This document shows positions 9,209 through 41,549 of a stretch of DNA of 51,395 bases, piece after piece (the stretch's first letter is position 1; each line of letters starts with the position of its first letter). The DNA lies in contig JBIKVM010000001.1 in assembly GCA_044356825.1 (NCBI GenBank), forward strand, positions 1-51,395. Direction: 5' to 3'. The translations under genes and the position numbers were made by a program. The DNA comes from Limisphaerales bacterium (GTDB taxonomy: Bacteria > Pseudomonadota > Alphaproteobacteria > Rhodobacterales > Rhodobacteraceae). A model generated the notes under the pieces. The model saw only the letters and a list, made by a program, of their open reading frames with translations, was not told where the DNA came from and made no database searches.

Positions 9209-10051
9209 TCAGGCCTTGCCAGCCTCGGCTTCGTCCTCGCCCTTGCGACGCTTGCGCCGGCGCGACTTGACGCGCTCGGGCTCGTCATCGAAGCGCACTT
9301 CGGGGTCAAGAAGACGGTAGTTGGCGCGCGCGCGCACCTCGTCGGTCTCTGCCAGGATGTGCCAATAGAGCCGGTCACGATAGAGTTGGTAGGACCGCAG
9401 AAGGTTCAACTGCGCCCGCCGGGTATAGAGCGCGAGCAGCACATGCACGATCACCAGGATGGTCCAATGGGTCAGGAGTGTGACGCCATAGGCCACGAGC
9501 GCCCCGACCATCGGGAAGTAGAGCCGATGATTGAGCATCCACAGCGGGGGCAGCGTCGTCGCTAGCGGATCGGGCTGGGTCGGATGGATGGCTGCCACCT
9601 TGGCCTTGAGTTCGCGGAAGACCTCGTAGTTCTGATAGGCCGCGATTGGCCCGTAGGTGACGGACCTGAAGGCCGCGGCGATCTCGAGCGCGGTCTCGGG
9701 GGGGCAATGATCGAAGCTGCCGCGCAAGGGCGTCGTGTAGATCTGGTGAAAGAAGACCCCACCCCGGCAGAATGTCACAAGCCACCGCGGATCGATATCG
9801 GCCTCTTCGGCCGCCTTGTCTCCATCCTCGAAGAACCTCTGCAGCGCATCGACGTCGCCGCTGAACATCTGGCCGTCGATCGCCACCAGAATGTCACCGT
9901 CCTTGAGGCGCATCGACCGGCCAAGTTTCGAGACGCCGTCTTTCTCGATCCGCAGAAAGGTGGGGACCGTCGCAACGCCCTCGAGCGTGACGCCCCCTGA
10001 TCCCTGGGCACCGGGACGGGCGCGCGCGCCGGTCGTCTGGGGATCGGCCAT
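9209..10051 (-). CDS. Hypothetical membrane protein, 280 aa: N-terminal PDZ-like segment, C-terminal 2-TM region and basic tail
   Basis: Internal ATG 10051, 10 nt after the upstream stop. LKDGDILVAIDGQMF resembles a PDZ-type ligand-binding strand. TM region: LPPLWMLNHRLYFPMVGALVAYGVTLLTHWTILVIVHVLLAL. Tail: KSRRRKRRKGEDE. Confidence 0.55.
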   Translation of the reverse strand: MADPQTTGARARPGAQGSGGVTLEGVATVPTFLRIEKDGVSKLGRSMRLKDGDILVAIDGQMFSGDVDALQRFFEDGDKAAEEADIDPRWLVTFCRGGVFFHQIYTTPLRGSFDHCPPETALEIAAAFRSVTYGPIAAYQNYEVFRELKAKVAAIHPTQPDPLATTLPPLWMLNHRLYFPMVGALVAYGVTLLTHWTILVIVHVLLALYTRRAQLNLLRSYQLYRDRLYWHILAETDEVRARANYRLLDPEVRFDDEPERVKSRRRKRRKGEDEAEAGKA

Positions 10052-10061
10052 CGCGGTTCGC

Positions 10062-10889
10062 TCAGGGGAACTTGATGATGTCGCCGCCGCCCTGCGAGCC
10101 CGACGATGCGGCGGGCGCACGCGGCCGCGGTGCCGCGGGTGCGGCTGCGGGTGCCGGACGGTTTGCAACCGCCGTGATCTTGGCCGAGATTTCCTGCGAC
10201 AGCAGCGTCACCGCGTCCAGCTTGGCCATGATCTCGGTCAGCGCGGCAGCGGATCGGTCAACCGGCGGCTCCGCTGCCGCACCGGCTTCCGCGGCGCCCT
10301 CGGCCGGCACGGCAGGCGGTGCGACGCTCTCGAGTGCGGCCACCACGCGGCCGAGCGTTTCAGCCTGTTCGGCAAAACCCGCCGCCAGAGCGGATCCAAG
10401 CTCACCCGACATCAGGCCGAGCGGCCCCGGACTAGCCGGATCAGTGCCTGTCAGGGCGGTAGCGATCGACTGGGGCTGCGCGGCAAGGGCGGCTTCGATG
10501 CGGGCCATGGCCTCGGTGCTCTGGCCGATCGCACCCGCGATCTCGGCCTGAGCTTCGTCGAGCCCCTCGACGCTGCCGATTGCCCCCACGAGCTTGTCGA
10601 CGTTCTCGGCGAAGATGACGAGTGCCTCGAGCGATGTCTGGTTCGTCGTCTGCATCTCGCTCAGCGTACGGTAATACATGAGCGCGGCGAGGACGACCAC
10701 CGCCACCGCCCCGATCATCGAGCTGGCAAAGACAGCAATGGCATAGCGGTACACCTTCTTCACCTCGCGGGCTGAAGCTTCGTTCTGCTTGCGGATGGTC
10801 TCGAACTCGGCCGTGACGTTCGTGGCGGCGTCGGCCGCGTCGAGGGCGATCTTGATGCTTTCCTCGATGGCCCTTGTGTCCTCGCTCAT
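10062..10889 (-). CDS. Hypothetical bitopic membrane protein, 275 aa
   Basis: ATG 10889 shares an ATGA overlap with the upstream stop, and AGGAG is nearby. Short cytoplasmic N-terminus, one TM segment (YAIAVFASSMIGAVAVVVLAALMYY), then a long Ala/Glu-rich helical region and a Pro/Ala-rich tail. Confidence 0.6.
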   Translation of the reverse strand: MSEDTRAIEESIKIALDAADAATNVTAEFETIRKQNEASAREVKKVYRYAIAVFASSMIGAVAVVVLAALMYYRTLSEMQTTNQTSLEALVIFAENVDKLVGAIGSVEGLDEAQAEIAGAIGQSTEAMARIEAALAAQPQSIATALTGTDPASPGPLGLMSGELGSALAAGFAEQAETLGRVVAALESVAPPAVPAEGAAEAGAAAEPPVDRSAAALTEIMAKLDAVTLLSQEISAKITAVANRPAPAAAPAAPRPRAPAASSGSQGGGDIIKFP

Positions 10890-27558: not shown

Positions 27559-29131
27559 CGATGGGACGTATTTTTTCCGAGCCTTCGACGACGCCCTGGA
27601 TGATCTCGCCGGAAGAAACGTTCTCGACCTCGATGATGTCACCCAGTTGGCCGTTGCCGACGGCGCGGCCGGGTGTCACGATCTCGAAGCCGCCGATCGC
27701 ATTCACGATCATGAGCGGATTGCCCTCGCGCACGAGCCAGTCGTAATCGAGGTGCCGGGCGTGGAGCGCGCGCCCCTCACCGAGCGTCTGGGTCAGCGTG
27801 CGCCCGATCACGTCGGATGCGTTCGTGAACAGCCCGGTAGAGGCCTTCTGCGGCGCCGGGATCATCATAACATCGTCCTCGGTCAGAACCGCCCCCTTGC
27901 GCAGGCTGCGCCGGAGCGCCGCGACGACGACACCCGAGCTGGCCGCGTCCGCAGCCTTCTCGCCGGTGTTGGCCTCAGCGGCAGGGGCCGGCATCGCTTC
28001 GGCCGCCTCGGCCTCTAGAGCCGCAACCGCCGTTGCATCGGGCAAGGGTGAGGACAGGTTCGTCCGCACGAGCAGCGACCACTCGAAGGGCGTCGTGCAG
28101 CGCACCGTGACCATGCTCCAGTCGGTTCCGTTGCGCGGTTCTGCACCGAGGGGTTCGGAGCAGGGATAGAAGCGCCGGGTCGCGGGGATCACGGGCTCGC
28201 CACGCAGGCCGGCAGCCTGCAGGAGGTCGATCACCGCCGCTTCGACATGTGCGGCCGTGACATCGAAGGCCCCGGTTGCATCGGCGGCCGTTGCGGCGTC
28301 CTCGACGGTGCGCACATAGACGGCCCATTCGAGCGGTTCGGAGCAACGCACCTCGACCGTCCGCCAGTCCGAGCCGAAGCGCGGCGCGGCCTTGAGTTCG
28401 CTCGAGCAGGGAAAGAAGCGGCGCAGGCGCGACACGAGCGGGGTCGCGGCGATCCCCTCTTCGCTCAGCGCACGCCTGACCGCGGCCTCGATGTCGGTGG
28501 CGGTCGCGCGCGGTGCCGAGTCAAGCGCGGTTGTGCTCGCGGGGCCCCGGCGGGCAACGGTTCGGACATTGAGCGACCAGCGCGCCGGGGCGGGGCAACT
28601 GACGGCAACCGTCCGCCAATCACCCTCGATCCGCGGCGCGACATCGAGCGGTGCCGCACAGGGGTAGAAGACGCGCGACTGGTTCACGACCGGCACGGCA
28701 TCAAGCGCCGCCGCATCGAGTTTGGCCTGAACCGCCGCGACGATCTCTGCTGCATCAACCTGCCGGACGGGATCGGGGACTCCCGCGGCATCGGCCGGCA
28801 GCGCAGCGCCGCTGCGGACCATCACCGACCAGCGGACAGGCGCCGGGCAGGTGACGTTGACAGTGCGCCAGTCGTCGCCATTGCGCGGCGTGACCTCGAG
28901 TGGCGCGCCGCAAGGATTGAACTGGCGCCCGGGCGGAATCACGGGGTCGGCCTCGTAGCCCTGCTCCTGAAGGACGCGGCGGACGCGCGCAGCTACCTCG
29001 GCACCCGAGACGACCTGTGCCCCGGCCATCTGCTCGGCCAGGGTGGGGGGCGGATCCTGTTCGGGCGCCGACACCGCGGGCCCTGCCGCGAGACAGGCCA
29101 TGAGCGCGAGGACGAAGCGGCGGATCGCCAT
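27545..29131 (-). CDS. flgA: P-ring assembly chaperone FlgA, expanded to 528 aa with a fourfold-repeated N-terminal domain
   Basis: Internal ATG 29131 with a signal peptide (MAIRRFVLALMACLAAGPAVSA). C-terminal SAF/FlgA region: LRKGAVLTEDDV...VREGNPLMIV...GDIIEVENVSSGEIIQGVV. Preceded by four modules that match the FlgA N-terminal domain pattern (PC..PL...W..V.V.C....W...VR). Confidence 0.85.
   Translation of the reverse strand: MAIRRFVLALMACLAAGPAVSAPEQDPPPTLAEQMAGAQVVSGAEVAARVRRVLQEQGYEADPVIPPGRQFNPCGAPLEVTPRNGDDWRTVNVTCPAPVRWSVMVRSGAALPADAAGVPDPVRQVDAAEIVAAVQAKLDAAALDAVPVVNQSRVFYPCAAPLDVAPRIEGDWRTVAVSCPAPARWSLNVRTVARRGPASTTALDSAPRATATDIEAAVRRALSEEGIAATPLVSRLRRFFPCSSELKAAPRFGSDWRTVEVRCSEPLEWAVYVRTVEDAATAADATGAFDVTAAHVEAAVIDLLQAAGLRGEPVIPATRRFYPCSEPLGAEPRNGTDWSMVTVRCTTPFEWSLLVRTNLSSPLPDATAVAALEAEAAEAMPAPAAEANTGEKAADAASSGVVVAALRRSLRKGAVLTEDDVMMIPAPQKASTGLFTNASDVIGRTLTQTLGEGRALHARHLDYDWLVREGNPLMIVNAIGGFEIVTPGRAVGNGQLGDIIEVENVSSGEIIQGVVEGSEKIRPIANMN
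28061..29014 (-). repeat. Four tandem coding repeats of about 82-84 codons inside flgA
   Basis: Cys pairs at residues 74/95, 158/179, 242/263 and 324/345. Shared pattern: V..V...L...G....PV....R.F.PC..PL...PR.G.DWRTV.V.C..P..WS..VRT. Confidence 0.7.
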
Positions 29132-30279
29132 CAGCGCACCTCCATGAAGCGCGCCTTGGCGCCGGCCAACGCGGCGGTGTCGCGCGTGCGATCGATGGGT
29201 CGCAGCCGGACCGAGGAGTCCTCGATCCCGATGATCTCGAGGATCGTGTAGGGCGTCGAACTGCCCTCGGTATAGGCGAGGTGGTTGCGCGTGAGGCCGT
29301 GGCGCCGCCCGAACGGCAGGCTGAGGGTTCCGTCCCCGGCAGCCGCGAGCATCCCCACGAGCGGGCGGCACACGATGTCGCGAACCAGCGCATCGACATG
29401 CGCCTCGAGCCCCGCCGTCAACTCGGCAACGACCGTGGCGCGGTCTCGGCGGGAGATCGGGTTCATAAGCGCGAGCGTCCCCGTTCCGGGCAGACGGACA
29501 CTGCGGCGCAAGACGGCCTGCGCGCCCTCCTCGGTTCCTCCGGAGAACAGGCGCGACGCGATCTCGAGTTCGATCTCTGGGCCTTCGATCAGCCCCACTG
29601 CGGTGGATCCCGCGCGGATCTCTACCATGGTGTCAAAACCGAAACCGTTCGAGGCGACACCCGCGGCGAGCGGCCGCATCCCCGTCAGGGTTGCGTAATC
29701 GAAGGCGGGGTTGGCCGTGGCGCTCGACATCACCTCCTGAGCCGATGAGCCGACGCTCCCCGCGAAGTCGACCGAACGATGCGCGCCGAGCTGTTCCATC
29801 AGCGCGGCCGCGACGTCCTGCACCACGGGCTGAAGCCATGCGGGGGCGCGCGGATCGAGCACAAGTGACGGCCGGAACGCCATGATCGAGACGCGCACCT
29901 CGCGCGGGCAATCGGCAATCGGCTGGATCTCGCCCAGCAGCGCACGGACGCGGATCCGCGTTGCCTCGCCGACGCGCTCCTCGGAGAGGATCGAATAGTC
30001 AAGGATGCGCGATGCGGGCCGCACGACAAGCTGATCGGTCACGATCTCGCTGCGCGAAAGGGCGGTGAAGCCAGTGACCTCCGCTCCCCCGATCATGGCT
30101 GCCTGATAGAGCGCCTCTTCGAGCGCGCGCCGCCGCGTAGCCGATGCGGCACCTTGGACCGTGTCGACGGCCTGCCCCTCGGCCTCAACCGTCATCACCT
30201 GCGCCGCAGCCGGCAGGGCATGCCCCGCCGCGGCGATGACCAGCGCAAGCAGCGCGGCAGGGATGATGGGCCGGCTCAC
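29131..30279 (-). CDS. flgT: FlgT-like flagellar outer-ring (H-ring) assembly protein, 382 aa (GTG start)
   Basis: GTG 30279 with GAGGGA at 6-nt spacing. Signal peptide. The N-terminal pattern VEAEGQAV...ATRRRALEEALYQAAMIGGAEVTG is like the FlgT/LPP20-type N-domain. Positioned between flgP and flgA. Confidence 0.6.
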   Translation of the reverse strand: MSRPIIPAALLALVIAAAGHALPAAAQVMTVEAEGQAVDTVQGAASATRRRALEEALYQAAMIGGAEVTGFTALSRSEIVTDQLVVRPASRILDYSILSEERVGEATRIRVRALLGEIQPIADCPREVRVSIMAFRPSLVLDPRAPAWLQPVVQDVAAALMEQLGAHRSVDFAGSVGSSAQEVMSSATANPAFDYATLTGMRPLAAGVASNGFGFDTMVEIRAGSTAVGLIEGPEIELEIASRLFSGGTEEGAQAVLRRSVRLPGTGTLALMNPISRRDRATVVAELTAGLEAHVDALVRDIVCRPLVGMLAAAGDGTLSLPFGRRHGLTRNHLAYTEGSSTPYTILEIIGIEDSSVRLRPIDRTRDTAALAGAKARFMEVR

Positions 30280-30289
30280 GGAAAATCCC

Positions 30290-30826
30290 TCAGCCGGCGC
30301 GACGGGCAGCGCGCAAAAGCTGATCGACCATCTCGCGGTCGATCTCGAGCAGCACCTCGTAGGTATCGCTGCCCTTGGGTTCGATGCGCACGGTGCGTGC
30401 GCCCCGGATGGTGCCCGCGACAGACGCGCGCAACGTATCGCTCTGGACCACCGCATCGGCAATCGAGGTCTGGCTGTCGATGCGCAGCCCGTGAATCTTT
30501 TCGGTCAGCTCGCGCATCGCCTCGAGCCGCGCGGCGCGGATCGCCATCAGCCGGCGATGGGTCTGCGACTTGCCATGCTGGGCAGAGACAACCGCATAAC
30601 CAACTCCACTGATCGTGGGGACCGTGCGCGCCGCCGTGTCGTTCACGTCAAGCACCTGCTGCGTGCGCAGGAGGTCCTGCGTGGCCGAAGGTCCCTGATC
30701 GGACGCCCCCGCGAAGGGAAGACTCAACGACCCGGTGCAGCCCGAGACGGCCAGCCCGAGGCCGAGCGCTAGCACCGTCGGCAGGACAGCCGGACGGGCG
30801 CGGTGGATCGTGAATTCATGTGCCAA
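30290..30826 (-). CDS. flgP: FlgP (LPP20-family) flagellar lipoprotein, 178 aa (TTG start)
   Basis: TTG 30826 preceded by GAAGGAG at 7-nt spacing, downstream of the sigma54 promoter. Lipobox LAVSGC. LPP20-like core: GVGYAVVSAQHGKSQTHRRLMAIRAARLEAMRELTEKIHG. Confidence 0.7.
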   Translation of the reverse strand: MAHEFTIHRARPAVLPTVLALGLGLAVSGCTGSLSLPFAGASDQGPSATQDLLRTQQVLDVNDTAARTVPTISGVGYAVVSAQHGKSQTHRRLMAIRAARLEAMRELTEKIHGLRIDSQTSIADAVVQSDTLRASVAGTIRGARTVRIEPKGSDTYEVLLEIDREMVDQLLRAARRAG

Positions 30827-30861
30827 GGTGCCGCTCCTTCGCAAGGGTTGCAAAGGACGGG

Positions 30862-30877
30862 TGCACGAACCGTGCCA
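30862..30877 (-). promoter_or_regulatory. sigma54 promoter of flgP operon: TGGCAC-ggttc-GTGCA
   Basis: Correct spacing. The predicted transcription start is about 25 nt upstream of TTG 30826. Confidence 0.6.
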
Positions 30878-30918
30878 GACGGCCCGGACGAGGTTGCCTG
30901 AGGCCGCAACCATGCGGG

Positions 30919-30934
30919 TGGCACAGGTTTTGCT
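30919..30934 (+). promoter_or_regulatory. sigma54 promoter of flhA operon: TGGCAC-aggtt-TTGCT
   Basis: Full consensus match. Divergent from the flgP promoter 42 nt away. About 140-nt leader to ATG 31086. Confidence 0.65.
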
Positions 30935-31056
30935 TTCATGGATCGGAGAGATCTCGTCCAAGTGCGGAAGGCGCGGCAGAGATGGCAGCGATGGCAGGAA
31001 AAACCAGGGGGAACGGGTTCGGAACGGGCCACGGCATGACCCTTGGCCGAGGAACC

Positions 31057-31072
31057 CGGCGGGATTCCGACA
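31057..31072. promoter_or_regulatory. Palindromic box cGGCGGGATTCCGACA (13/16)
   Basis: Lies in the flhA leader, about 213 bp upstream of the flgP transcription start. The right half-site is perfect and is followed by CCGACAGTCGG. Confidence 0.4.
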
Positions 31073-31085
31073 GTCGGTGCCTGTC

Positions 31086-33212
31086 ATGGAACTGACACGC
31101 GGCCGGATGGTCCCAGGCGATCTGCGCGGCGCCCTCGGAAGCGCGATCCTTCCGATCGGCATCCTCGCCGTCGTCGCGATGATGGTGCTGCCGCTGCCGG
31201 TCATGCTGCTCGACATGTTCTTCGTCGTGAACATCCTCGTTTCGCTGCTCATCCTGCTCGTGGCGATGCACACCTATCGTCCGGTCGATTTCTCGTCCTT
31301 CCCCACGGTGCTCCTGATCGCGACGATCCTCAGGCTCGCGCTCAACGTGGCCTCGACACGCATCGTGCTGGCCGAGGGGCACACGGGCGATGATGCGGCC
31401 GGACAGGTCATCAAGTCGTTCGGCGAGTTCGTGATCGCAGGCAACTACGTGGTCGGGATCTTCGTCTTCGCGATCCTCGTCATCATCAACCTCATCGTCA
31501 TCACCAAGGGCGCGGGGCGCGTGTCCGAAGTTTCGGCGCGCTTCACGCTCGATGCGTTGCCCGGCAAGCAGATGGCGATCGACGCCGACCTCAACGCAGG
31601 GCTCCTGACGGCCGAGGAGGCGACGAAGCGCCGCCAGGAAGTCGCGCAAGAGGCGGACTTCTACGGCTCGATGGATGGTGCATCGAAATTCGTGAAGGGC
31701 GACGCGATCGCAGGCCTTCTCATCCTTGCCATCAACATCGTCGGCGGTCTCATCATCGGGACTGTACAGCATGGGCTGGGCATCGGCGAAGCGGCCGAGA
31801 TCTACATCCTGCTCTCGATCGGCGACGGCCTCGTCGCGCAGATCCCCTCGCTCCTGCTCTCGATCGCGACCGCGATCATCGTGACGCGCGTCTCCTCGAC
31901 CGAGGACATGGCCGAGCACATTGGAAAACAGGTAAATCTCTCGCGCGCCTGGATCCCTTCGGCGTTGGTGATGTTCATTCTCGGCGTGACGCCGGGGATG
32001 CCCAACCAGCTCTTCCTGACCTTCGCGGCGCTGGCGGCGGGGGCAGGCTATCTGGCCCGCCGAGCCGAAATCGCGCGCGCCGAGGAACCCGAGGAAGAAC
32101 CCGAGGCCGCCGCTGGTGAAGGCCCGGCGAAAGAGGCGATCACGCTCGAGGATGTCACCGACTATTCTCCGGTCTCGCTCCAGCTCGGCTATGGCCTCAT
32201 CTCGATGGTGGATGGCGACGAGGGCAGCCCCCTTGTCACCCGTATCACCGGGATCCGGCGCGAGGTGTCGCGCGCGCTCGGTTTCGTCGTGCCCGGCGTG
32301 CGCATCCGCGACGACCTCGGGCTCGAGCCCAACCAGTACCGCATCCGCATCGGCCAGACGATCGTCGGCGAGGATCGAGTCTTTCCCGACCGCAAGCTCG
32401 CGCTCGCGGGGGATCGGACGGCGGTCAGGATCGACGGGGTCGAGGTCAAGGATCCGTCGTTCGGAATGGACGCGACCTGGATCCGCCCGCAGCAGCAGGC
32501 CGAGGCCGAGGCGAACGACTATGTCGTGATCGAGCCCGAGTCGGTCCTTGCGACGCACCTCAGCCAGCTTCTCTACAAGCACGCGGCCGAACTCGTGGGG
32601 CAGGACGATGTGCAGGCGCTGGTCGACAACCTCGCCAAGAACAGCCCCAACCTCGTGCAATCGGTCGTGCCGAAACTCGTGCCGCTGCATGTGCTGACGG
32701 CGGTGCTGCGCGCGCTCCTGCACGAGCGGATCCCGATCGCGGACCTGCGGCGGATCCTCGAGGGGCTCGCGAACCTCTCGAACCGCAATGCCCCGCCGAC
32801 AGAGATGGCCGAGGCACTGCGGCCCGCACTTGTGCCGCTCCTCATCCAGCAGGTGGCGCCGCTCGGTAAGCCGCTGCCCGTCATCACCCTGACGCCCGAC
32901 CTCGAGCAGCTCCTGCTGCGGACCCTGCGCCAGTCGAGCGAGGGCGAGCTCGTCCTCGAGGGCGAGCTTGCCCAGCAGCTCGTGACCTCGATCAACGAGA
33001 CATCCGAGCGGATGTCGGCCGAGGGAAAGCCCGGCGTCACCGTCGTCGCACCCCAGATCCGGCGCGCCTTCGCCGCCTTCCTGCGCGGCCACATGCCCGA
33101 CGCCATCGTGCTGAGCTATACTGAACTGCCCGAAAACCGCCGTGTCGAGGTCGCCGCGACCATCGGCGGGGCGGGTGCGCTGCCCCGCGAAACCGGCCCC
33201 AAGACCAGATGA
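31086..33212 (+). CDS. flhA: Flagellar export apparatus protein FlhA, 708 aa
   Basis: Internal ATG 31086. Conserved FlhA N-terminus (LPLPVMLLDMFFVVNILVSLLILLVAM, FPTVLLIATILRLALNVASTRIVL), FHIPEP region, and C-terminal cytoplasmic domain. Confidence 0.95.
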   Translation: MELTRGRMVPGDLRGALGSAILPIGILAVVAMMVLPLPVMLLDMFFVVNILVSLLILLVAMHTYRPVDFSSFPTVLLIATILRLALNVASTRIVLAEGHTGDDAAGQVIKSFGEFVIAGNYVVGIFVFAILVIINLIVITKGAGRVSEVSARFTLDALPGKQMAIDADLNAGLLTAEEATKRRQEVAQEADFYGSMDGASKFVKGDAIAGLLILAINIVGGLIIGTVQHGLGIGEAAEIYILLSIGDGLVAQIPSLLLSIATAIIVTRVSSTEDMAEHIGKQVNLSRAWIPSALVMFILGVTPGMPNQLFLTFAALAAGAGYLARRAEIARAEEPEEEPEAAAGEGPAKEAITLEDVTDYSPVSLQLGYGLISMVDGDEGSPLVTRITGIRREVSRALGFVVPGVRIRDDLGLEPNQYRIRIGQTIVGEDRVFPDRKLALAGDRTAVRIDGVEVKDPSFGMDATWIRPQQQAEAEANDYVVIEPESVLATHLSQLLYKHAAELVGQDDVQALVDNLAKNSPNLVQSVVPKLVPLHVLTAVLRALLHERIPIADLRRILEGLANLSNRNAPPTEMAEALRPALVPLLIQQVAPLGKPLPVITLTPDLEQLLLRTLRQSSEGELVLEGELAQQLVTSINETSERMSAEGKPGVTVVAPQIRRAFAAFLRGHMPDAIVLSYTELPENRRVEVAATIGGAGALPRETGPKTR

Positions 33213-33223
33213 GGTGAACGGCC

Positions 33224-34600
33224 ATGCCCACGCTCACAGTCCTTGCCCCCGACAGCTCTCTCGCGATGGACGAGATCGCGCGCCAGCTTGGCGACAACGC
33301 CTTCATCCTCTCGACCTCGAAACGCGACGGCATGATCGAGATCAAGGCCACCAACGACCCGATCCCCCCCGGCCCGCGCGAGACGAAGGCGCGATCGGCA
33401 TTCGCAGCGGCGCTGGCGGCGCACGGGGCGAATGAGGAGGTGATGGTCCTTCAGCGGCCGCGCGAGGCACATGAGGCGCAGGAGAACGCCGAAACGGCTG
33501 CTCCCACCGAGGCCAGACCCGAACCCGAGCGTCGCTCGGCCACCGTCGTTCGCATGCCCCAGCCGGCGACCGAGGCAGCCCGCGCCCCGCGCGCCCCAGC
33601 GTTCCGCCCCTCATTCCAGCCCGTCGCGCCGGCGGTGCCCCTGCCCGCGTCTGTCGAAGCCCTGACGGCGCACCGCAGCACGGCCGAGGTCCGCATCCCC
33701 GCCCCGCCGGCCCACGCGCCCGCCGAAGACGTGGTGGAGACTCTCTCGCGCCTGCACGGCGCGCTGTCGGCATTGCGCGAAAGCATCGCGCGCACCGATC
33801 TCGCAGTCACTGCAACGGCCGCTGCGCCGCAACCCGCGGCGCCGACCTCGCAGGCGCGCATCGTCGCCGCAGGCTTCGAGGCATCGCTCGTGTCCGAGAT
33901 CGTTGGGCAGACCGCGCGTACAGCAGAAGCCGCCGAGGCGGGCTTTGCCGAGGCACTGGCCGGGCGCATCATCGCCGCCGCGCCCGAGTCGATGCTTGCC
34001 CATGACGCAGTGCTGGTGCTCGGAGCGTCGGGATCGGGACGCTCGACCCTCGCGGCAAAGCTCGCGGCGGTCCTGCGCGACCTGCACCCGGACCGCCGCT
34101 GCCGCCTGGTCGAGATCTGCCCGCGCGGCATGACGGCGGGCGAATACCTGCGGGGATGTGCGCGGATGCTCAACAGCGCGCAGATGCTCGATATCGGGTT
34201 CGTTCTCTGGCACGAAGAGGATCTGGCCAGCCTGCCCCCGCTTGAGGCCGGCACCACCCACATCATCGACATGCCCTCGGATGGGGCGACATGCGCGCGC
34301 ATCCTCGCGGGCATGGGCGGGGCGGTTCCGGCCGACGCGCCGCGCCTGCTGGCACTTCCGGCCGGGGCCACGACCGGGATGATCGACCGCCAGATGGCGC
34401 GCCCGGAATGTGCCGGGGCGGTGGTCGCGCTGACCAAGCTTGACGAATGCGACGTGGCCGCACCCGAGCTTTCGACCCTCGCGCGGCATGACCTGCGGAT
34501 CGGCTGGCTGTCGGGGACGCGGGCACTGGTGGGCAATCTCTCGCCGGCGACGGCGCAGGTCATGCGCGACTACATCGCGGGCTATATCGAGCAGGCCTGA
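33224..34600 (+). CDS. flhF: FlhF-like SRP-type GTPase homologue with degenerate G motifs, 458 aa
   Basis: FlhF-type N-terminus (MDEIARQLGDNAFILSTSKRDGMIEIKA). G1 is GASGSGRST rather than GxxGxGKT. G3 is DMPS rather than DTAG. G4 TKLDE is intact. Confidence 0.75.
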   Translation: MPTLTVLAPDSSLAMDEIARQLGDNAFILSTSKRDGMIEIKATNDPIPPGPRETKARSAFAAALAAHGANEEVMVLQRPREAHEAQENAETAAPTEARPEPERRSATVVRMPQPATEAARAPRAPAFRPSFQPVAPAVPLPASVEALTAHRSTAEVRIPAPPAHAPAEDVVETLSRLHGALSALRESIARTDLAVTATAAAPQPAAPTSQARIVAAGFEASLVSEIVGQTARTAEAAEAGFAEALAGRIIAAAPESMLAHDAVLVLGASGSGRSTLAAKLAAVLRDLHPDRRCRLVEICPRGMTAGEYLRGCARMLNSAQMLDIGFVLWHEEDLASLPPLEAGTTHIIDMPSDGATCARILAGMGGAVPADAPRLLALPAGATTGMIDRQMARPECAGAVVALTKLDECDVAAPELSTLARHDLRIGWLSGTRALVGNLSPATAQVMRDYIAGYIEQA

Positions 34601-34628
34601 AGGGCCGCAAAGCGGAAAGGCAAGGGGG

Positions 34629-36344
34629 ATGCCCCAGTCGATCACCATAGCCAGCGGCAAGGGCGGCGTCGGCAAGACCTGCATCGCGGTCAACCTCGCG
34701 CTCACGCTCGCGGCGATGGGGCTGCGGGTGAAGTTGCTCGATGCCGATTTCGGGCTGGCCAATTCGCATGTGCTCATGGGGATCAACAGCACGAAGTCGA
34801 TCCGCGACGTCATCACCGGAGAGCGCTCGCTGGTCGAAATCGCCGAGCGGGTCGCGCCGCGGCTCGACTTGCTCGCGGGCGGCAGCGCGCTGTCGGAGTT
34901 GCTCAATGTCGATCCGACGGTCCGCTATCGGCTGATCCGCAACTTCGACGCGATGGCCGACGATACCGACGTGCTGCTCATCGATGCGCCGGCGGGAGCG
35001 TCGGACAATGCGCTGTCCTTCGTCGTCGCGGCGGACCGGGTCGTGGTCGTGATTGTGCCTGAACCGACAAGCTTCATGGACGCCTATGCCCTGATCAAGA
35101 CCGCAAACCTCGATCATGGGCTCGAGCGGTTCTCGATCGTCGTCAACATGGCCGCCAACGAGACCGAGGCGGCGCGCCATTTCGAGAAGTTCCGCGCGAT
35201 CGCGATGCGCTTTCTGGCGGTCGAATTGACCCATGTCGGGCATGTGCCGCTCTCGAACGCGCTCAGCCGGTCGGTTGTGGCCCTGAAGCCCATCATGCAG
35301 GGCGGCGGCAATCCGGCATCGCCCGAGGGGGCGGCGTTCCGCAAGCTTGCCAACGGCATCCTGCACGCGCCCGTGAACCCGCCCCGCGGCATCCGTTTCT
35401 TCGAAGGAACCGACGGCGCACCCGCTTTGCCGCGGCTCGTACCGGAGCCTGCGCAGGCGGCCGCACCCCAAGTGGCGGCGGCTGCCGATCCGGCGCCCGA
35501 AGTGCCGGGAGCCGCGCAGGGCGACACCGTGACGGGCATCCTCGTGCGGCTCCATGATGCGCTTGCCGGGTTGCGCCAGTCGATGGCAACCGAACCTGCG
35601 GCAGCTGCGGCCGCGCTTGAAACCAATCGGATCCTTGCCTCGGGCTTCGACCCCGACCTTGCGCGGACCCTCGCGCGGGTCGATGCCGGGGCGGCTCCGG
35701 CCCCCGCATTCGCACGCGCGCTTGCCACCCAACTTGCGCACGAGGCCCCCCTCGATCTGCTCGGCGCACCCGCAGTCATGGTGCTTGGGCCGTCGGGTGC
35801 CGGGCGGACGACGGTTGCGGCCAAGCTCGCGGCCTTCATGTCGGCGGCGATGCCGGGCCGGCGGGCGGCGCTCGTGAACGTGGTGGCGCGTGACGGCGGC
35901 GATGACGGCCGGCTGCGGATGCTCGCCACGCGTATTGGCGCGGCGGCGGATTTCACGGTCTGGACCGAGGACGATTCCGAGACTCTGCCGCTCGGTTCCG
36001 ACATCACCCATATCCTCGACATGCCGCCCGGCCCGAAGGACTGCGTGCGACTTGCCGGGCGCTTCGCGGCCGCGTTCGGTCCGGCGGCGGTGCTGCCGCT
36101 GCTGGTGCTGCCGGGCGGGTCGAGTGCCTCGCTCGTTTCGCGCCAGCTTGCCCGGATCGATCCCTCGCGTGGCGCAGTCATTCTCTCGAAACTCGACGAG
36201 TGTCCGGCCGATCCGGGCGAACTTCTGGCGCTCGCGCAGGCGGGGGCGCGGGTCGGGTGGCTGTCGCAGGGGCGGGCGGCTGGGCTTGGCATCGTGCCCG
36301 TGACGCCCGCCCTCATGCACGATCACATTGCAGGTGCATCATGA
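34629..36344 (+). CDS. flhG: FlhG/FleN MinD-type ATPase fused in frame to a second FlhF-like NG domain, 571 aa
   Basis: ATG 34629 with AAGGGGG upstream. Residues 1-260 are FleN-like: deviant Walker A SGKGGVGKT, LLDADFGLAN, EPTSFMDAYALIK. A Pro/Ala linker follows. Residues about 300-571 are paralogous to the C-terminal part of the preceding FlhF: VLGPSGAGRTT, HILDMPPGP, SKLDEC. Confidence 0.8.
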   Translation: MPQSITIASGKGGVGKTCIAVNLALTLAAMGLRVKLLDADFGLANSHVLMGINSTKSIRDVITGERSLVEIAERVAPRLDLLAGGSALSELLNVDPTVRYRLIRNFDAMADDTDVLLIDAPAGASDNALSFVVAADRVVVVIVPEPTSFMDAYALIKTANLDHGLERFSIVVNMAANETEAARHFEKFRAIAMRFLAVELTHVGHVPLSNALSRSVVALKPIMQGGGNPASPEGAAFRKLANGILHAPVNPPRGIRFFEGTDGAPALPRLVPEPAQAAAPQVAAAADPAPEVPGAAQGDTVTGILVRLHDALAGLRQSMATEPAAAAAALETNRILASGFDPDLARTLARVDAGAAPAPAFARALATQLAHEAPLDLLGAPAVMVLGPSGAGRTTVAAKLAAFMSAAMPGRRAALVNVVARDGGDDGRLRMLATRIGAAADFTVWTEDDSETLPLGSDITHILDMPPGPKDCVRLAGRFAAAFGPAAVLPLLVLPGGSSASLVSRQLARIDPSRGAVILSKLDECPADPGELLALAQAGARVGWLSQGRAAGLGIVPVTPALMHDHIAGAS

Positions 36345-37084
36345 TGATACGGCGCGGCTACCTCGAACAGAGCCTGCGGCCCGAGGATCTGGTCGCGACG
36401 CATCTTGAGATGGTGCGCCGGATCGCGCATCAGTTGCATGGCCGCGTCCGCGGAGCGGTCGAAGTCGAGGATCTGATCCAGGTGGGCTACATCGGCCTTG
36501 TGGACGCGAGCCGAAAATACGAAAAGCGCGAGGGCGTCAGCTTCGAAGCCTACGCGCTCATCCGCATCCGGGGCGCGATCCTCGACTTCCTGCGGCGCAA
36601 CTCGAACCTCTGCCGCACCACGATCCTGATGCGTCAGAAGATCGCAGCCGCGACCCTCGCGCTCGAGCGCAAGTTGCAGCGGTCGGCCACCGCGGCCGAG
36701 ATCGCCGAAGCGGCTGGCGTTTCGACGGTCGAACTCGATCAGTGGCAGCAGGCCTTTCAGGCCAACGTGCACCATTCGCTCGACGAAGCGTATGACGAAT
36801 TCTCGATCTGGTTCGCAGAAAGCTCAGACAACCCCGAAGAGGCGCTCTCTCAGTCCGAACTGCGCGGGGCGCTGCGCCGGGCCCTGACCACCCTGCCCGA
36901 GCGCGAGGCGCTGGTGCTGCAACTGTACTACGTCGAGGAACTGAACGTCTACGAGATCGCGGAGGTGCTCGAGGTCACGACCGGGCGCGTCTCTCAGATC
37001 AAGAAGGCCGCGATCGGCCGGATCAGGGCAACGCTTGCGACCATGCTGGGCGAGCCCTCGCTGGCCGGGGCCGGACCCGCATGA
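36341..37084 (+). CDS. fliA: Flagellar sigma factor sigma28 (FliA), 247 aa
   Basis: ATGA overlap with the upstream stop. Region 2 (DLIQVGYIGLVDASRKYE), region 3, and region 4 HTH (LNVYEIAEVLEVTTGRVSQIKKAAIGRIR). Confidence 0.9.
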   Translation: MMIRRGYLEQSLRPEDLVATHLEMVRRIAHQLHGRVRGAVEVEDLIQVGYIGLVDASRKYEKREGVSFEAYALIRIRGAILDFLRRNSNLCRTTILMRQKIAAATLALERKLQRSATAAEIAEAAGVSTVELDQWQQAFQANVHHSLDEAYDEFSIWFAESSDNPEEALSQSELRGALRRALTTLPEREALVLQLYYVEELNVYEIAEVLEVTTGRVSQIKKAAIGRIRATLATMLGEPSLAGAGPA

Positions 37085-37491
37085 GCGGTGGGTGGTTCCA
37101 GTCAAGCACGTTGCAGATGTTCCTGCAAAGCGCCGAGTTGCGCCTCATCGGCATCGAGTTGCGGCCCGAACTCGATCTCTCGTGCGGGCTCGCGAGCATC
37201 GCGCGAGGGACCTGCACGCTGCGGTTGCGCCCGGCCGATGTCGTGCGCCCGGGCGTGATGGGACAGATCGAGGTTCTGGCCGACCGCCCGATCATGCGCG
37301 GCGAGATCGTCGTGCCGCGCGCGAGCTTCCAGACGCTCGCGCAACATCTCGAGCGCGAGCCGCCACGCCCCGTCGCGGTCATCGTCGCGTTTGCCGAAAG
37401 CCTCGATGTGAACCTTCAGGGCGATCTGAAGATCAGCGAGAACCGCACCCTGTCGGTCACGAACATCTCGTTCAACGTCCCGCTTCAATAG
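37081..37491 (+). CDS. Hypothetical protein, 136 aa, translationally coupled to fliA
   Basis: ATGA overlap with the fliA stop. High GC3. No recognisable motif. Confidence 0.55.
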   Translation: MSGGWFQSSTLQMFLQSAELRLIGIELRPELDLSCGLASIARGTCTLRLRPADVVRPGVMGQIEVLADRPIMRGEIVVPRASFQTLAQHLEREPPRPVAVIVAFAESLDVNLQGDLKISENRTLSVTNISFNVPLQ

Positions 37492-37496
37492 TCCTG

Positions 37497-38996
37497 TCAG
37501 ACCTGACCGGCCATCACCGCCTTGCGCCTGCGCTCGAACGACGAGGGGATGTTGAGCATCTCGCGGTACTTCGCCGCCGTCCGCCGCGCGAGGTTCACCC
37601 CCTCGGCCTTCATCATCCGCACGATGGCGTCATCGCTGTAGGGGGCATCGGCGGGTTCGCCCTCGATCAGTTTGCGGATGCGGAACTTGACCGCCGAGGC
37701 GGCATCGGCCCCCTCGCCCGAGGTCGAGGACGGCAGTCCCACGCTGAAGAAGGTCTTGAGGCGGAAGGTCCCGAGCGGGGTCGCCATCATCAGGCCCGAG
37801 GTCACGCGGCTGACGGTGCTTTCGTGTACGCCGACGGCTTCGGCGACGTCGCGCAGCACGAGCGGGCGCAGATAGCCGAGGCCCTTTTCGAGGAATGCCT
37901 CCTGCTGGCGCACGATCTCAGCGCCGATGCGCAGGGTGGTGGCGTTGCGCTGCGCGATGGCGCGGCGCAGCCAGTTGGCATCCGCGACACGCTCGCGCGC
38001 AAAGCCGCGCGCGGCATCGGCTGCAGGGTTGGCGGCCTTGCCCGCAAGCACCGACTGGGCGAAGCCGCGGTTGACCTGCACCGACGGCAGGGTTGAGCGG
38101 TTGAGGTCCACGATCCAGCCATCCGGGCCGCGCCGCACGATCAGGTCGGGCGGCGTGATCGGATCGGCGACCTGCTCGAACTGCATCCCGGGTTTGGGGT
38201 CGAGGGTGCGCAGCGCGCGCAGCATCTCGCGCAGGGAATCGGCATCGACGCCGCAGGTGCGCGCGAGCGATTTCATGTTGCCCGAAGCGAGCAGCGGCAG
38301 GTTCTCGAGCAGCGCGGCGAAGGCGGGCGTCAGCATCCCCCGTTCAGCCGCCTGAAGGCGCAGGCATTCGGAAAGGCTGCGCGCGAAAATCCCGGCGGGC
38401 TCGATGCCCTGCAGCCGCTTCAGCACCGCCTCGACCTCGGCACCCGGCACGCCGAGCGCCATCGCGACCTCATCGACGGTCGGGCCGAGCCAGCCCGTGG
38501 GCTCCAGCCCGTCGGCCAGTGCAAGCGCGATGATGCGCTGTGCGGGGTGGGCGAAGATGAGGTCGATCTGCGTCGCGACATGATCGTAAAGCGAGCGTTC
38601 GCCCTGCGCCACGCTGCCCGAGATCGCGTCGAAATCGTCCCCCTCGTCGTCGCGCCGGCGCCCGCCGGTGCCGAGGTCGATCCGGTCGGTCTCGAAGGTG
38701 TTGGCATAGCCCTCGGCGCAGATCGGGCCGTCATCGGGGATCGCGGCCGCGCCGATCGGCGCGTCGATCGCCTCGGGGGCGGCCTCGGCCGTGGCCTGCG
38801 GCGCCTCGGGCGCAAGGATCGGCGCGTCGCGTTCGCCCTCGGCCACCTCGATGAAGGGGTTCTCCTCGGCCTGCTGGTCGAGGAAGGCGCGCAACTCGAG
38901 GTTCGACATCTGCAGAAGCCGGATCGCCTGCTGCAACTGCGTCGTGATGACGAGCGACTGCTTTTGCCGCAACTGCTGGGACGTGAAGATCTGCAT
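37497..38996 (-). CDS. rpoN: RNA polymerase sigma-54 factor, 499 aa
   Basis: Internal ATG 38996 with GGAGGT upstream. Region I (LRQKQSLVITTQLQQAIRLLQMSNLEL). C-terminal HTH and RpoN box (ARRTAAKYRE). Confidence 0.93.
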   Translation of the reverse strand: MQIFTSQQLRQKQSLVITTQLQQAIRLLQMSNLELRAFLDQQAEENPFIEVAEGERDAPILAPEAPQATAEAAPEAIDAPIGAAAIPDDGPICAEGYANTFETDRIDLGTGGRRRDDEGDDFDAISGSVAQGERSLYDHVATQIDLIFAHPAQRIIALALADGLEPTGWLGPTVDEVAMALGVPGAEVEAVLKRLQGIEPAGIFARSLSECLRLQAAERGMLTPAFAALLENLPLLASGNMKSLARTCGVDADSLREMLRALRTLDPKPGMQFEQVADPITPPDLIVRRGPDGWIVDLNRSTLPSVQVNRGFAQSVLAGKAANPAADAARGFARERVADANWLRRAIAQRNATTLRIGAEIVRQQEAFLEKGLGYLRPLVLRDVAEAVGVHESTVSRVTSGLMMATPLGTFRLKTFFSVGLPSSTSGEGADAASAVKFRIRKLIEGEPADAPYSDDAIVRMMKAEGVNLARRTAAKYREMLNIPSSFERRRKAVMAGQV

Positions 38997-39068
38997 GGGC
39001 CTACCTCCGGTTGCAGGCAGGATCGGCAATCGGCCCGGTTTTTGCAAACAATCAATTTGACAGGGCAA

Positions 39069-39152: not shown

Positions 39153-40262
39153 CTAGATGTCCTCGGTCGCCGCCATGGCGGGGCGCTCGATCATCAGCTT
39201 CTTCATCTTCTCGATCAGGGTCGTGCGCCGCAGCTTCAGCACTGCCGCCGCCCGGCTGACGAAACCGTTGTGCTTTTCGAGCGCGGCCTCGATCAGCACC
39301 ACTTCGATGTCGCGCACATGCCGGCGCAGGTCGATCTCGTCGTGGTGGTCGAACCAGCCGCGATAGGCGGTGACCTGCGCATCCTCGCTCGGGGCTCCGA
39401 GGTTGCGGCCCACCCCGCCGAGGTTCGTGAACTCCGACCAGACCTCGGCCTGCTCGGCGGCCTGCCGCGCCGCATCGGGCACCCGCAGCAGGAGGAGGTT
39501 CTCGCGCACGTTCTGCCCCGAGACAGGGCGGCCGGGAAAGAGGATGAAGGCGCGATCGACGACGTTGCGCAACTCGCGCACGTTGCCGGGCCAGGCGCAG
39601 GTCGCCAGCGTCTGCATCGCCGAGGCGTCGAACTCGGGCGCGACCGCGGCGGGATCCATGCGGCAGCGGTCGGCGATCATCGCGGCGACGATCTCGGGAA
39701 TGTCCGAGGCGCGCTCGGCCAGGCTCGGCACCTCGATCGGAAAGACGTTCAGTCGGTAATAGAGATCGGCACGGAACTCGCCCGAGGCGACCTTGGCATC
39801 GAGATTGCGGTGCGTCGCGCAGACGAGCCGGAGATCGAGCGCGATATCCTCGCGCCCGCCGATGCGCTGCAGCGCGCGCGTCTCGAGCACGCGCAGGAGC
39901 TTCGATTGCAGCGCCAGCGGCATGTCCCCGATCTCGTCGAGAAAGAGCGTCCCGCCCTGTGCCTGTTCGAAGCGGCCCTGCCGCTGACGGTCGGCGCCGG
40001 TAAAAGCGCCCTTTTCGTAGCCGAAGAGCTCGGACTCGAGCAACTCTGACGGGATCGCGGCACAATTGAGCGCGACGAGGCGCCCGCGCCGGCCGCTTTC
40101 GGCATGGATCGCCTGCGCCACGAGTTCCTTGCCCGCACCGGTCGGACCGAGCACGAGGACCGTACCGATCGACGGGGCGACGGTTGAAATGAGTTGACGC
40201 ACGCGCTCGATGGCGGGCGAGGAGCCGATGATCGGCGTCCGGCCTGTTCCTGCGTCGGTCAT
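39153..40262 (-). CDS. fleQ: sigma54 enhancer-binding protein FleQ-like (AAA+ plus Fis-type HTH, no N-terminal domain), 369 aa
   Basis: ATG 40262. The AAA+ core starts about 10 residues in (IIGSSPAIERV, GPTGAGKE, YEKGAFTGA, VRELRN). C-terminal HTH: FVSRAAAVLKLRRTTLIEKMKKL. Confidence 0.85.
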   Translation of the reverse strand: MTDAGTGRTPIIGSSPAIERVRQLISTVAPSIGTVLVLGPTGAGKELVAQAIHAESGRRGRLVALNCAAIPSELLESELFGYEKGAFTGADRQRQGRFEQAQGGTLFLDEIGDMPLALQSKLLRVLETRALQRIGGREDIALDLRLVCATHRNLDAKVASGEFRADLYYRLNVFPIEVPSLAERASDIPEIVAAMIADRCRMDPAAVAPEFDASAMQTLATCAWPGNVRELRNVVDRAFILFPGRPVSGQNVRENLLLLRVPDAARQAAEQAEVWSEFTNLGGVGRNLGAPSEDAQVTAYRGWFDHHDEIDLRRHVRDIEVVLIEAALEKHNGFVSRAAAVLKLRRTTLIEKMKKLMIERPAMAATEDI

Positions 40263-40421: not shown

Positions 40422-40538
40422 GTTTTCAATCTGAATGAGAGTTTAATTCCGGTCACTCCACTCTCCGTGCCAACAGCCCGCTTGCGGCCGGCCTGCCCGA
40501 CCGATAGAGGGTGGTGCCAAAGACCCGCTGAGGTCAGG

Positions 40539-41549
40539 ATGCGCGCCGCCCGCCTTGCCCATGCCCTCGAGTCCGGTCAACTCGTACTGCCCGCCGAGGG
40601 CGCAGTCGGCGTGTTCCGCCCCGATGGCGCGGACGATCTTTCTGCCCTTCCGGCCGGTCGCGTGCGTGTCTTCACCGGCAACGCTCTTGCGCACCGTGCC
40701 TTTTCGGCACAGGGCCTGCCCGTTGCGCGCGCGCCCGCTGCCCCCCTTGCCGCCGCAATCGTCTGCCTGCCGCGCGCACGCGATCACGGCCGTGCTCTTG
40801 TGGCCGAGGCCATCGCATCGGTGGGGCACGGGGGCCTTCTGGTCGTGGATGGTCAGAAGCAGGACGGGATCGAGACGATGCAGCGCGACCTCGGCCGCGC
40901 GGGAATCACGCCCGAGGCGGTCGTCGCCAAGGCGCATGGGCGGCTTCTGACCCTCCGCGCCCCGGCTTCGGCCCCCGATGGCTGGGCGGCCGATTGGCGC
41001 GAAGTCGAACCGGGCGTGTTCACGCGGCCCGGCGTCTTTTCGGCGGATGGTCCCGACCCGGGCTCGGCCCTGCTTGCGGCGAACCTGCCCGAGGGGCTTG
41101 CGGGCCGCGTCGCGGATCTGGGCGCAGGCTGGGGTTGGCTTGCGCTTCAGGCGCTGCGGCACCCCGCTATCACGCAGTTGGACCTGATCGAGGCCGAGGC
41201 CGACGCGCTCGACTGCGCGCGACGCAACATCGCCGATCCGCGCGCGCAGTTCGTATGGGCCGACGCGCTGCGGCATCGGCCGGATGCGCTCTTCGATGCC
41301 GTCCTGTGCAACCCGCCCTTCCACGCGGGCCGGCCGGCCGAACCTGCGCTCGGTCAGGCGTTCATCCGCGCGGCCGCGGCCATGCTGAAGCCGCGCGGCA
41401 CGCTCTGGCTGGTCGGCAACCGGCATCTGCCCTATGAGGAGACGCTGCGGTCATCCTTCGTGACCGTCGCAGAGGTCGGCTCGAGCCCGGGCTTCAGGGT
41501 CTGGTCCGCGCAAGGCAAGCGCACCAGCCGCACACACGGGATGGGGTGA
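40539..41549 (+). CDS. Class I SAM-dependent methyltransferase, RsmC/RsmD-like, 336 aa
   Basis: Internal ATG 40539. SAM-binding motif (VADLGAGWGWL) and NPPFH catalytic motif. Confidence 0.7.
   Translation: MRAARLAHALESGQLVLPAEGAVGVFRPDGADDLSALPAGRVRVFTGNALAHRAFSAQGLPVARAPAAPLAAAIVCLPRARDHGRALVAEAIASVGHGGLLVVDGQKQDGIETMQRDLGRAGITPEAVVAKAHGRLLTLRAPASAPDGWAADWREVEPGVFTRPGVFSADGPDPGSALLAANLPEGLAGRVADLGAGWGWLALQALRHPAITQLDLIEAEADALDCARRNIADPRAQFVWADALRHRPDALFDAVLCNPPFHAGRPAEPALGQAFIRAAAAMLKPRGTLWLVGNRHLPYEETLRSSFVTVAEVGSSPGFRVWSAQGKRTSRTHGMG

Follow-up and report, generated by a model that had tools for sequence, protein, structure and literature searches.

The sequence analysed here, a 51,395-nt stretch from the start of contig JBIKVM010000001.1 (GenBank assembly GCA_044356825.1; hereafter the window), contains a complete flagellar gene cluster in which flhA, flhF, flhG, fliA and a 136-aa open reading frame (ORF) follow one another as five closely packed genes on the + strand. 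The gene in the flhG position (34629..36344, +) encodes 571 aa from its ATG and comprises a MinD-type ATPase, a linker and a second NG-like domain, termed NG2, of the kind present in the adjacent FlhF. According to an earlier note made from the DNA letters, FlhG continues in frame into an FlhF-like domain, and this reading was confirmed: the MinD part passes into the C-terminal part within one continuous ORF from 34629 to 36344, without a stop or a change of frame, and the arrangement is conserved in relatives. The fusion gene is preceded by a free FlhF-like gene (33224..34600, +; 458 aa) in which a Pro/Ala linker connects a candidate N-terminal domain of the FliG-interaction domain (FID) type to an NG domain of degenerate sequence (NG1).

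The MinD/FlhG ATPase domain of the fusion occupies 34629..35384 (+), with an AAGGGGG Shine-Dalgarno sequence 5' of the ATG. ParA/MinD models match fusion residues 3-244 (Pfam ParA, 1.9e-21; TIGR01969, 7.3e-32), as anticipated for residues 1-260. The deviant Walker A motif SGKGGVGKT is intact at 34653-34679, as had been noticed before, and LLDADFG and LLIDAPAGAS are also present; SGKGGVGKT, DAD and DAPAG are invariant in relatives. The ATPase domain is followed by RGIRFFEG (35385..35408, +), which comparison with unfused FlhGs identifies as the conserved C-terminal FlhG motif and which is internal here. The GIRFF sequence lies 2-14 residues before the stop codon in 74 unfused FlhGs, and a role as a short membrane-targeting element is possible. 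A Pro/Ala-rich linker of ~39 aa (35409..35525, +) varies in length through in-frame indels, as seen in a DNA alignment with L001 and L002, two loci from Gemmobacter metagenome-assembled genomes (MAGs), and it has a low predicted local distance difference test score (pLDDT) in a single-sequence AlphaFold2 (AF2) model of the full 571 aa (whole-model pLDDT 41.8). NG2 (35526..36341, +), supported by profile search, AF2/Foldseek and hhalign, carries the P-loop GPSGAGRTT (35787-35813), a G3 remnant HILDMPPGP (36009-36035) and the G4 motif SKLDEC (36186-36203). Two other starts were considered and rejected. Starting at a TTG at 34440 would produce a 160-nt overlap with flhF, and 70+ loci keep the MPQSITIASGKGG N-terminus, as they do the fusion N-terminus MPQSITIASGKGGVGKT; a candidate internal GTG for a free NG2 (Val in TVTG) is GTC in L001 and so is not conserved.

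In the free FlhF-like protein, the N-terminal ~45 aa (33224..33358, +; MPTLTVLAPDSSLAMDEI...KATND) were recognised from conservation and a weak profile match. They are the most conserved part of the FlhF-like family, with a ratio of nonsynonymous to synonymous substitution rates (dN/dS, calculated by the Nei-Gojobori method) of 0.10-0.12. They align from position 5 of TIGR03499, and the family profile weakly matches the FlhF N-terminal fragment 9en1_A (E 0.0094). An FID is located at the N-terminus of Shewanella FlhF (PMC11236974); the 45-aa segment corresponds to it in position, and a FliG-binding role is putative. NG1 (33716..34597, +), located by BLASTP and profile search, carries the P-loop GASGSGRST (34022-34048), a G3 remnant HIIDMPSDG (34259-34285) and the G4 motif TKLDEC (34433-34450). 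The profile of the FlhF-like family matches the PDB FlhF structures 8r9r (E 3.7e-20) and 2px0 (E 1.2e-11). In comparisons with curated models, the free FlhF scores 61.3 bits (E 1.4e-16) and the fusion 30.3 bits against TIGR03499 (FlhF), both below the curated cutoff of 174.15, and against PF00448 the free FlhF scores 11.8 bits and the fusion 23.3 bits, the latter exceeding the cutoff of 22.7 over a 34-residue P-loop stretch only. Members of the FlhF-like family are mostly without a Pfam match and named 'hypothetical protein'. A tblastn search of PLSDB plasmids with the FlhF-like protein gave no match.

The similarity of NG2 to the free FlhF greatly exceeds what chance would give. The C-terminal ~270 residues of the fusion, reported earlier to align motif for motif with the preceding FlhF, do so with 37% identity (fusion 296-569 against FlhF-like 165-453; BLASTP E 2e-35), and profile-profile comparison of NG1 with NG2 by hhalign gave 100% probability (E 8e-51, 269 columns). 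A search for a signal recognition particle (SRP)-GTPase fold in residues 300-571 detected one, as a profile built only from the fused C-terminal domains matches 8r9r across the whole NG domain (E 5e-9). An AF2 model of NG2 built from a 69-sequence alignment was confident (pLDDT 90.3, predicted template modelling (TM) score 0.84), and Foldseek returned FlhF 8r9r as its best PDB match (E 3e-10, TM 0.71/0.76), followed by the NG domains of Ffh, SRP54 and FtsY (E 1e-9 to 1e-8) and FlhF 2px0/2px3. An SRP-GTPase fold of the FlhF type is thus supported for the C-terminal half of the fusion. The claim that two FlhF paralogues stand in tandem was upheld in part: the NG homology is real, and the second copy is partial, consisting of the NG domain only. 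Homology begins at FlhF residue 165 and the FID-type domain is absent from NG2, so the 'second FlhF' is not a full paralogue.

The long ORF is a real gene fusion, maintained by selection in a lineage of Paracoccaceae that resembles Gemmobacter. Full-length fusions of 564-571 aa, 70-72% identical to that of the window, are encoded by 14 clusters (90% identity) from NCBI MAGs and from assemblies of JGI, ENA and Logan; the fusion ORFs of L001 and L002 encode 569 and 564 aa, respectively. Linker indels between the window and these two loci are multiples of three, and the P-loop and SKLDEC are invariant among NG2 copies despite 57-60% overall identity. Values of dN/dS were 0.18-0.38 for NG2, 0.16-0.38 for NG1, 0.29-0.75 for the fusion linker, 0.09-0.17 for the MinD domain and 0.07-0.16 for FliA, and in both NG1 and NG2 the G1 motif, the Asp at the G3 position and the G4 motif (T/S)KLDE are conserved under purifying selection. 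An artefact (a missed stop or frameshift), or an NG2 left over from a duplication and now decaying without a function, would fit the faster evolution of the linker and NG2 relative to the MinD domain, and odd single-ORF database calls that look chimeric (P0015, P0016 and P0018) also speak for it. Both explanations are highly improbable, since 14 clusters of independent assembly origin preserve the same frame at 57-72% identity, the NG2 motifs are invariant at the dN/dS given above, the AF2 fold is confident, and the stop of the fusion is coupled to the start of fliA, whose ATG at 36341 shares ATGA with the fusion's TGA. The chimeric-looking calls join FlhG with FliA (P0015), the C-terminus of FlhF with the N-terminus of FlhG (P0016) and the N-terminus of FlhA with MinD (P0018); frameshifts or chimeric assembly probably explain them, and they are a caution for counts of 'fusions' among metagenome proteins.

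In order to establish the distribution of the fusion, one genome per GTDB species was scanned, yielding 79 loci with the flhA-flhF-flhG-fliA order from Paracoccaceae, SAR116/Puniceispirillaceae, Parvibaculales and others; Cereibacter sphaeroides (fla1) was not among them. The gene order had been described as standard, and it is shared by the window and 70+ related loci. Among the analysed loci, the fusion was found only in the window, L001 and L002. FlhG is unfused and 256-271 aa long in 74 loci, where the FlhG match ends 15-72 nt before that of fliA, and the nearest outgroups whose P-loop carries Arg, P0127 (L080/L081) and P0128 (L083), at 42-44% identity, likewise encode FlhG without a fusion (269-272 aa). 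Furthermore, when 1.84 billion representative proteins were searched exhaustively with HMMER, a single cluster at 50% identity (P0008) was full length among the 150 best matches listed, which supports a rare arrangement; the next-best match (54% identity, 267 aa) and the other listed matches cover the MinD half only. No MinD/ParA protein with a C-terminal SRP-type NG domain was found outside the Gemmobacter-like clade among the matches listed. The fusion is lineage-restricted, with a narrow phylogenetic range within a small, uncultured Gemmobacter-like group.

Long FlhG homologues were also checked (P0033, P0040, P0042, P0053, P0069 and P0083), and these contain no NG domain, their extensions being unrelated. 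Three of them (P0033, P0042 and P0053; 575-605 aa) are FlhG/MinD-like ATPases with a common C-terminal extension of ~330 aa; this extension includes the motif ...RATPIDALQLRRVVGRML..., matches no Pfam family and does not resemble the NG domain.

In the canonical system, FlhG activates the GTPase of FlhF through an N-terminal enhancer helix (DQAxxLR) and is brought to the membrane by an amphipathic helix at its C-terminus (PMC7226244, PMC12826062). The family found in the window departs from this arrangement. The P-loop residue of FlhF is Lys in 53/77 loci and Arg in 24/77, and DTAG or DTPG occurs in 0/77 FlhF-likes, nearly all of which retain TKLDE. In the alignment to 8r9r, TTDHYR (G2) stands against 'elaeeg' and IDTAGMG (G3) against 'iDlpads', with only the Asp at the G3 position kept. 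The family has retained G1, this Asp and G4, in which D and E do not vary across the 69 aligned sequences, and has lost TDxxR of G2 and TAG of G3. The observation that both P-loops of the window carry Arg and that both domains are without DTAG is correct, but neither change is peculiar to this locus. The Arg P-loop is found in the Gemmobacter group and, apart from it on the neighbour-joining (NJ) tree, in many SAR116 loci (L011-L076), which have unfused FlhG. The Lys-to-Arg change is older than the fusion and does not require it, since the closest Arg-P-loop outgroups have unfused FlhG.

The enhancer helix of FlhG is missing family-wide. Walker A begins at FlhG residue 9-10 (residue 9 in the window), most relatives have 0-20 in-frame codons upstream, and no DQAxxLR-like motif ([DE]Q[AS]xxL[RK]) is present in any frame of the window. 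At the other end, unfused FlhG relatives terminate with the short GIRFF and 2-14 residues. The FlhF motif losses argue against canonical hydrolysis, and from the missing DTAG, the Arg in the P-loop and the missing enhancer helix it follows that FlhG-stimulated GTP hydrolysis is probably not what drives the system. The premise of the earlier note, that FlhG stimulates the GTPase of FlhF, thus probably fails in this family.

The surrounding genes are those of a flagellar cluster throughout. The gene flhA (31086..33212, +) was identified by tblastn and synteny in 70+ loci and by the FHIPEP calls in relatives L080 and L082; its start is approximate, being placed at the Met of MELTRG within a frame open from 30735, and 11 nt separate its stop from the flhF ATG. 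The fusion is followed by fliA (sigma-28; 36341..37084, +; Pfam Sigma70 r2/r3/r4) and by the 136-aa ORF (37081..37491, +), the last of the block, whose start overlaps the fliA stop. This ORF lies directly after fliA in >60 related alphaproteobacterial loci and has no match in Pfam, NCBIfam or PDB, and it is an unannotated, conserved operon member. Regulatory context is provided by rpoN (37497..39068, -) and a sigma-54 enhancer-binding protein (39153..40262, -), both assigned with Pfam. The cluster also encodes fliC, motB, fliD, flhB, fliR, fliM, fliL, fliK, fliI and others, as well as flgA, flgT and an LPP20-type flgP (Pfam). Genes of the FlgT_N and LPP20 (FlgP) types lie at 29131-31273 (-), 5' of flhA; their maximal ORFs (29131-30462 and 30290-31273) overlap, so the true starts are shorter. 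FlgT/FlgP-type genes are known from the H-ring-bearing motors of Vibrio and of the Cereibacter fla1 type. Two ORFs with high G+C content at third codon positions, at 40443-41426 (-; 327 aa) and 9209-10168 (-; 319 aa), lie within the flagellar cluster or next to it and match nothing in Pfam or NCBIfam.

To place the origin of NG2, an NJ tree of NG domains was examined. The NG2 copies are monophyletic (100% bootstrap) and sister to the free FlhF of the same clade with 68% NJ bootstrap, alternatives receiving <=9%; identity between NG2 and NG1 is 35-43%. NG2 most likely arose as a partial duplication of the resident flhF, as judged from sequence relationships. The copy starts within the Pro/Ala linker, immediately ahead of the first helix of the N domain, comprises the N-domain helices and the G domain without most of the FlhF linker, and is joined to flhG after GIRFF.

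The favoured reading of these observations starts from the possibility that both NG domains are nucleotide-binding, hydrolysis-poor modules. If so, the FlhG ATPase would be the only working NTPase switch, a role that its intact MinD motifs suggest. SRP-type NG domains act as dimers; for this reason NG2 would most likely pair with NG1 of the free FlhF, by analogy with Ffh-FtsY, to form a pseudo-heterodimer. Such pairing could act as a tether that holds FlhG to FlhF where a new basal body forms, or as a cap that blocks the self-dimerisation of FlhF, and it would be a stoichiometric off-step in place of the lost step in which FlhG stimulates GTP hydrolysis. We infer, in this sense, that the NG domains may be described as pseudo-GTPases and the switch as differently wired. 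Taken as a whole, the proposal of a selected fusion in which NG2 pairs with NG1 and tethers or caps FlhF is put forward with about even confidence. A more far-reaching form of it is doubtful but possible: FlhF and NG2 would form an obligate, hydrolysis-independent pseudo-heterodimer, the MinD ATPase alone would gate FlhF together with the FliG it carries, and a whole family (Paracoccaceae, SAR116 and others) would operate without an FlhF GTPase cycle or an enhancer helix. If true, the FlhF-NG2 pair would be a replay of the evolution of Ffh-FtsY from a homodimeric ancestor.

Several observations weigh against pairing and against its proposed history. The canonical SRP-GTPase dimer interface consists of the G motifs and two nucleotides, and dimerisation of NG1 with NG2 is uncertain because these interface motifs are partly lost. 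The closest relatives with an Arg P-loop manage without a fusion. Bootstrap support for a duplication within the lineage is only the 68% given above, and NG2 lacks a 4-5 residue insertion (NSAQM region) common to the clade's FlhF and the Arg-type relatives; both leave the timing of the duplication uncertain. A different role for NG2, as a self-association or localisation module that does not bind FlhF and places FlhG independently of it, is rather unlikely. NG2-NG2 contact would stabilise the FlhG dimer, or NG2 would bind a landmark or membrane partner. Such a role is consistent with the homodimerisation of FlhF NG domains and the binding of HubP by the Shewanella FlhF GTPase domain (PMC11236974), with the dimeric action of MinD-type ATPases, such that a dimerising domain fused to one would work in cis, and with the strong divergence of NG2 from NG1 (35-43% identity), which fits a new partner. 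However, NG2 retains the motif set of NG1, no HubP-type partner was identified, none having been searched for, and the data do not separate homo- from hetero-pairing.

Improbable is the case in which the NG domains are still active NTPases by a non-canonical mechanism, the P-loop Arg and other residues standing in for G2/G3, so that FlhG would have a second catalytic subunit in cis and a two-NTPase switch would be hard-wired. The conservation under selection of G1, the G3-position Asp and G4 (the guanine-specificity TKxD), the retention of the P-loop Lys in about two thirds of the family and the existence of a natural ParA-like family with Arg in Walker A (NCBIfam NF047398, 'KGGVGR-motif variant AAA ATPase') are in its favour, but the G2 Asp/Arg and the gamma-phosphate-contacting TAG of G3 are missing in 77/77 loci, and FlhG is without an enhancer helix. 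Walker-A Lys-to-Arg substitutions also usually impair hydrolysis, as a matter of general knowledge.

Comparison with known systems places the window closest to the canonical FlhF-FlhG pair (FlhG also being known as FleN/YlxH; Vibrio, Shewanella, Pseudomonas, Campylobacter, Bacillus). Shared features are the flhA-flhF-flhG-fliA order with RpoN and a sigma-54 activator, an FlhF in which a linker joins a putative FID-type domain to an NG fold, and an FlhG of the MinD ATPase type whose Walker A is deviant. In contrast, the FlhF of the window lacks G2 and G3 (DTAG) and has Arg in its P-loop, its FlhG lacks the DQAxxLR helix, has a short GIRFF where the amphipathic helix is expected and carries an extra NG domain, and both proteins score below the TIGR03499 cutoff (61 and 30 versus 174 bits). 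The two proteins descend from and probably work like FlhF/FlhG, yet score below the curated cutoffs and are without the G1 Lys, G2/G3 and the enhancer helix. The anatomy described here is solid, and the function is predicted. As in Ffh (SRP54)-FtsY, there are two paralogous SRP-type NG domains, and that pair is a precedent for a heterodimer of paralogous NG domains. In Ffh and FtsY the full set of G motifs is present and GTP hydrolysis is reciprocal, whereas the window's NG domains have lost their catalytic motifs; moreover, one partner in the window is fused to a MinD ATPase, and its heterodimer is putative. With MinD/ParA proteins the N-terminal 250 residues of the fusion share matches to TIGR01969 (7e-32) and TIGR01968 (1.5e-25), the signature lysine, the switch motifs and a C-terminal hydrophobic motif, but these matches do not reach the MinD equivalog cutoffs and the context is flagellar.

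One further protein combines FlhF NG and FlhG MinD domains in a single ORF. P0080 (L082 5001-6878, 625 aa), from an ENA metagenome contig, has a Pro-rich linker and lies directly after flhA, as in the window. It differs in that NG precedes MinD, the order that loss of a stop codon between neighbours would give, in that no separate flhF was called, and in having a GKT P-loop and a DTPG G3. As it is known from one contig only, it may be an artefact.

The fusion is apparently undescribed: literature searches returned no description of this FlhF family or of the fusion, and the words fusion, fused, alphaproteobacteria and Rhodobacter are absent from a December 2025 review of FlhF-FlhG diversification (PMC12826062). 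Alphaproteobacterial polar flagellates have been reported largely to lack FlhF/FlhG (PMC7064773). The present results show that automated annotation misses this FlhF family.

FlhF/FlhG is the best-studied switch of flagellar number and position, and models of it rest on the FlhG enhancer helix ending the GTP cycle of FlhF. Both elements, the motifs of the FlhF GTP cycle and the enhancer helix of FlhG, are gone across a widespread alphaproteobacterial family, one lineage of which has added an NG copy to FlhG. If NG2 pairs with FlhF, the fusion would provide a genetic handle that separates the FlhF functions needing GTP hydrolysis from those needing NG-NG contact, and it would be the second case, after Ffh-FtsY, of a homodimeric SRP-type GTPase becoming a heterodimer.

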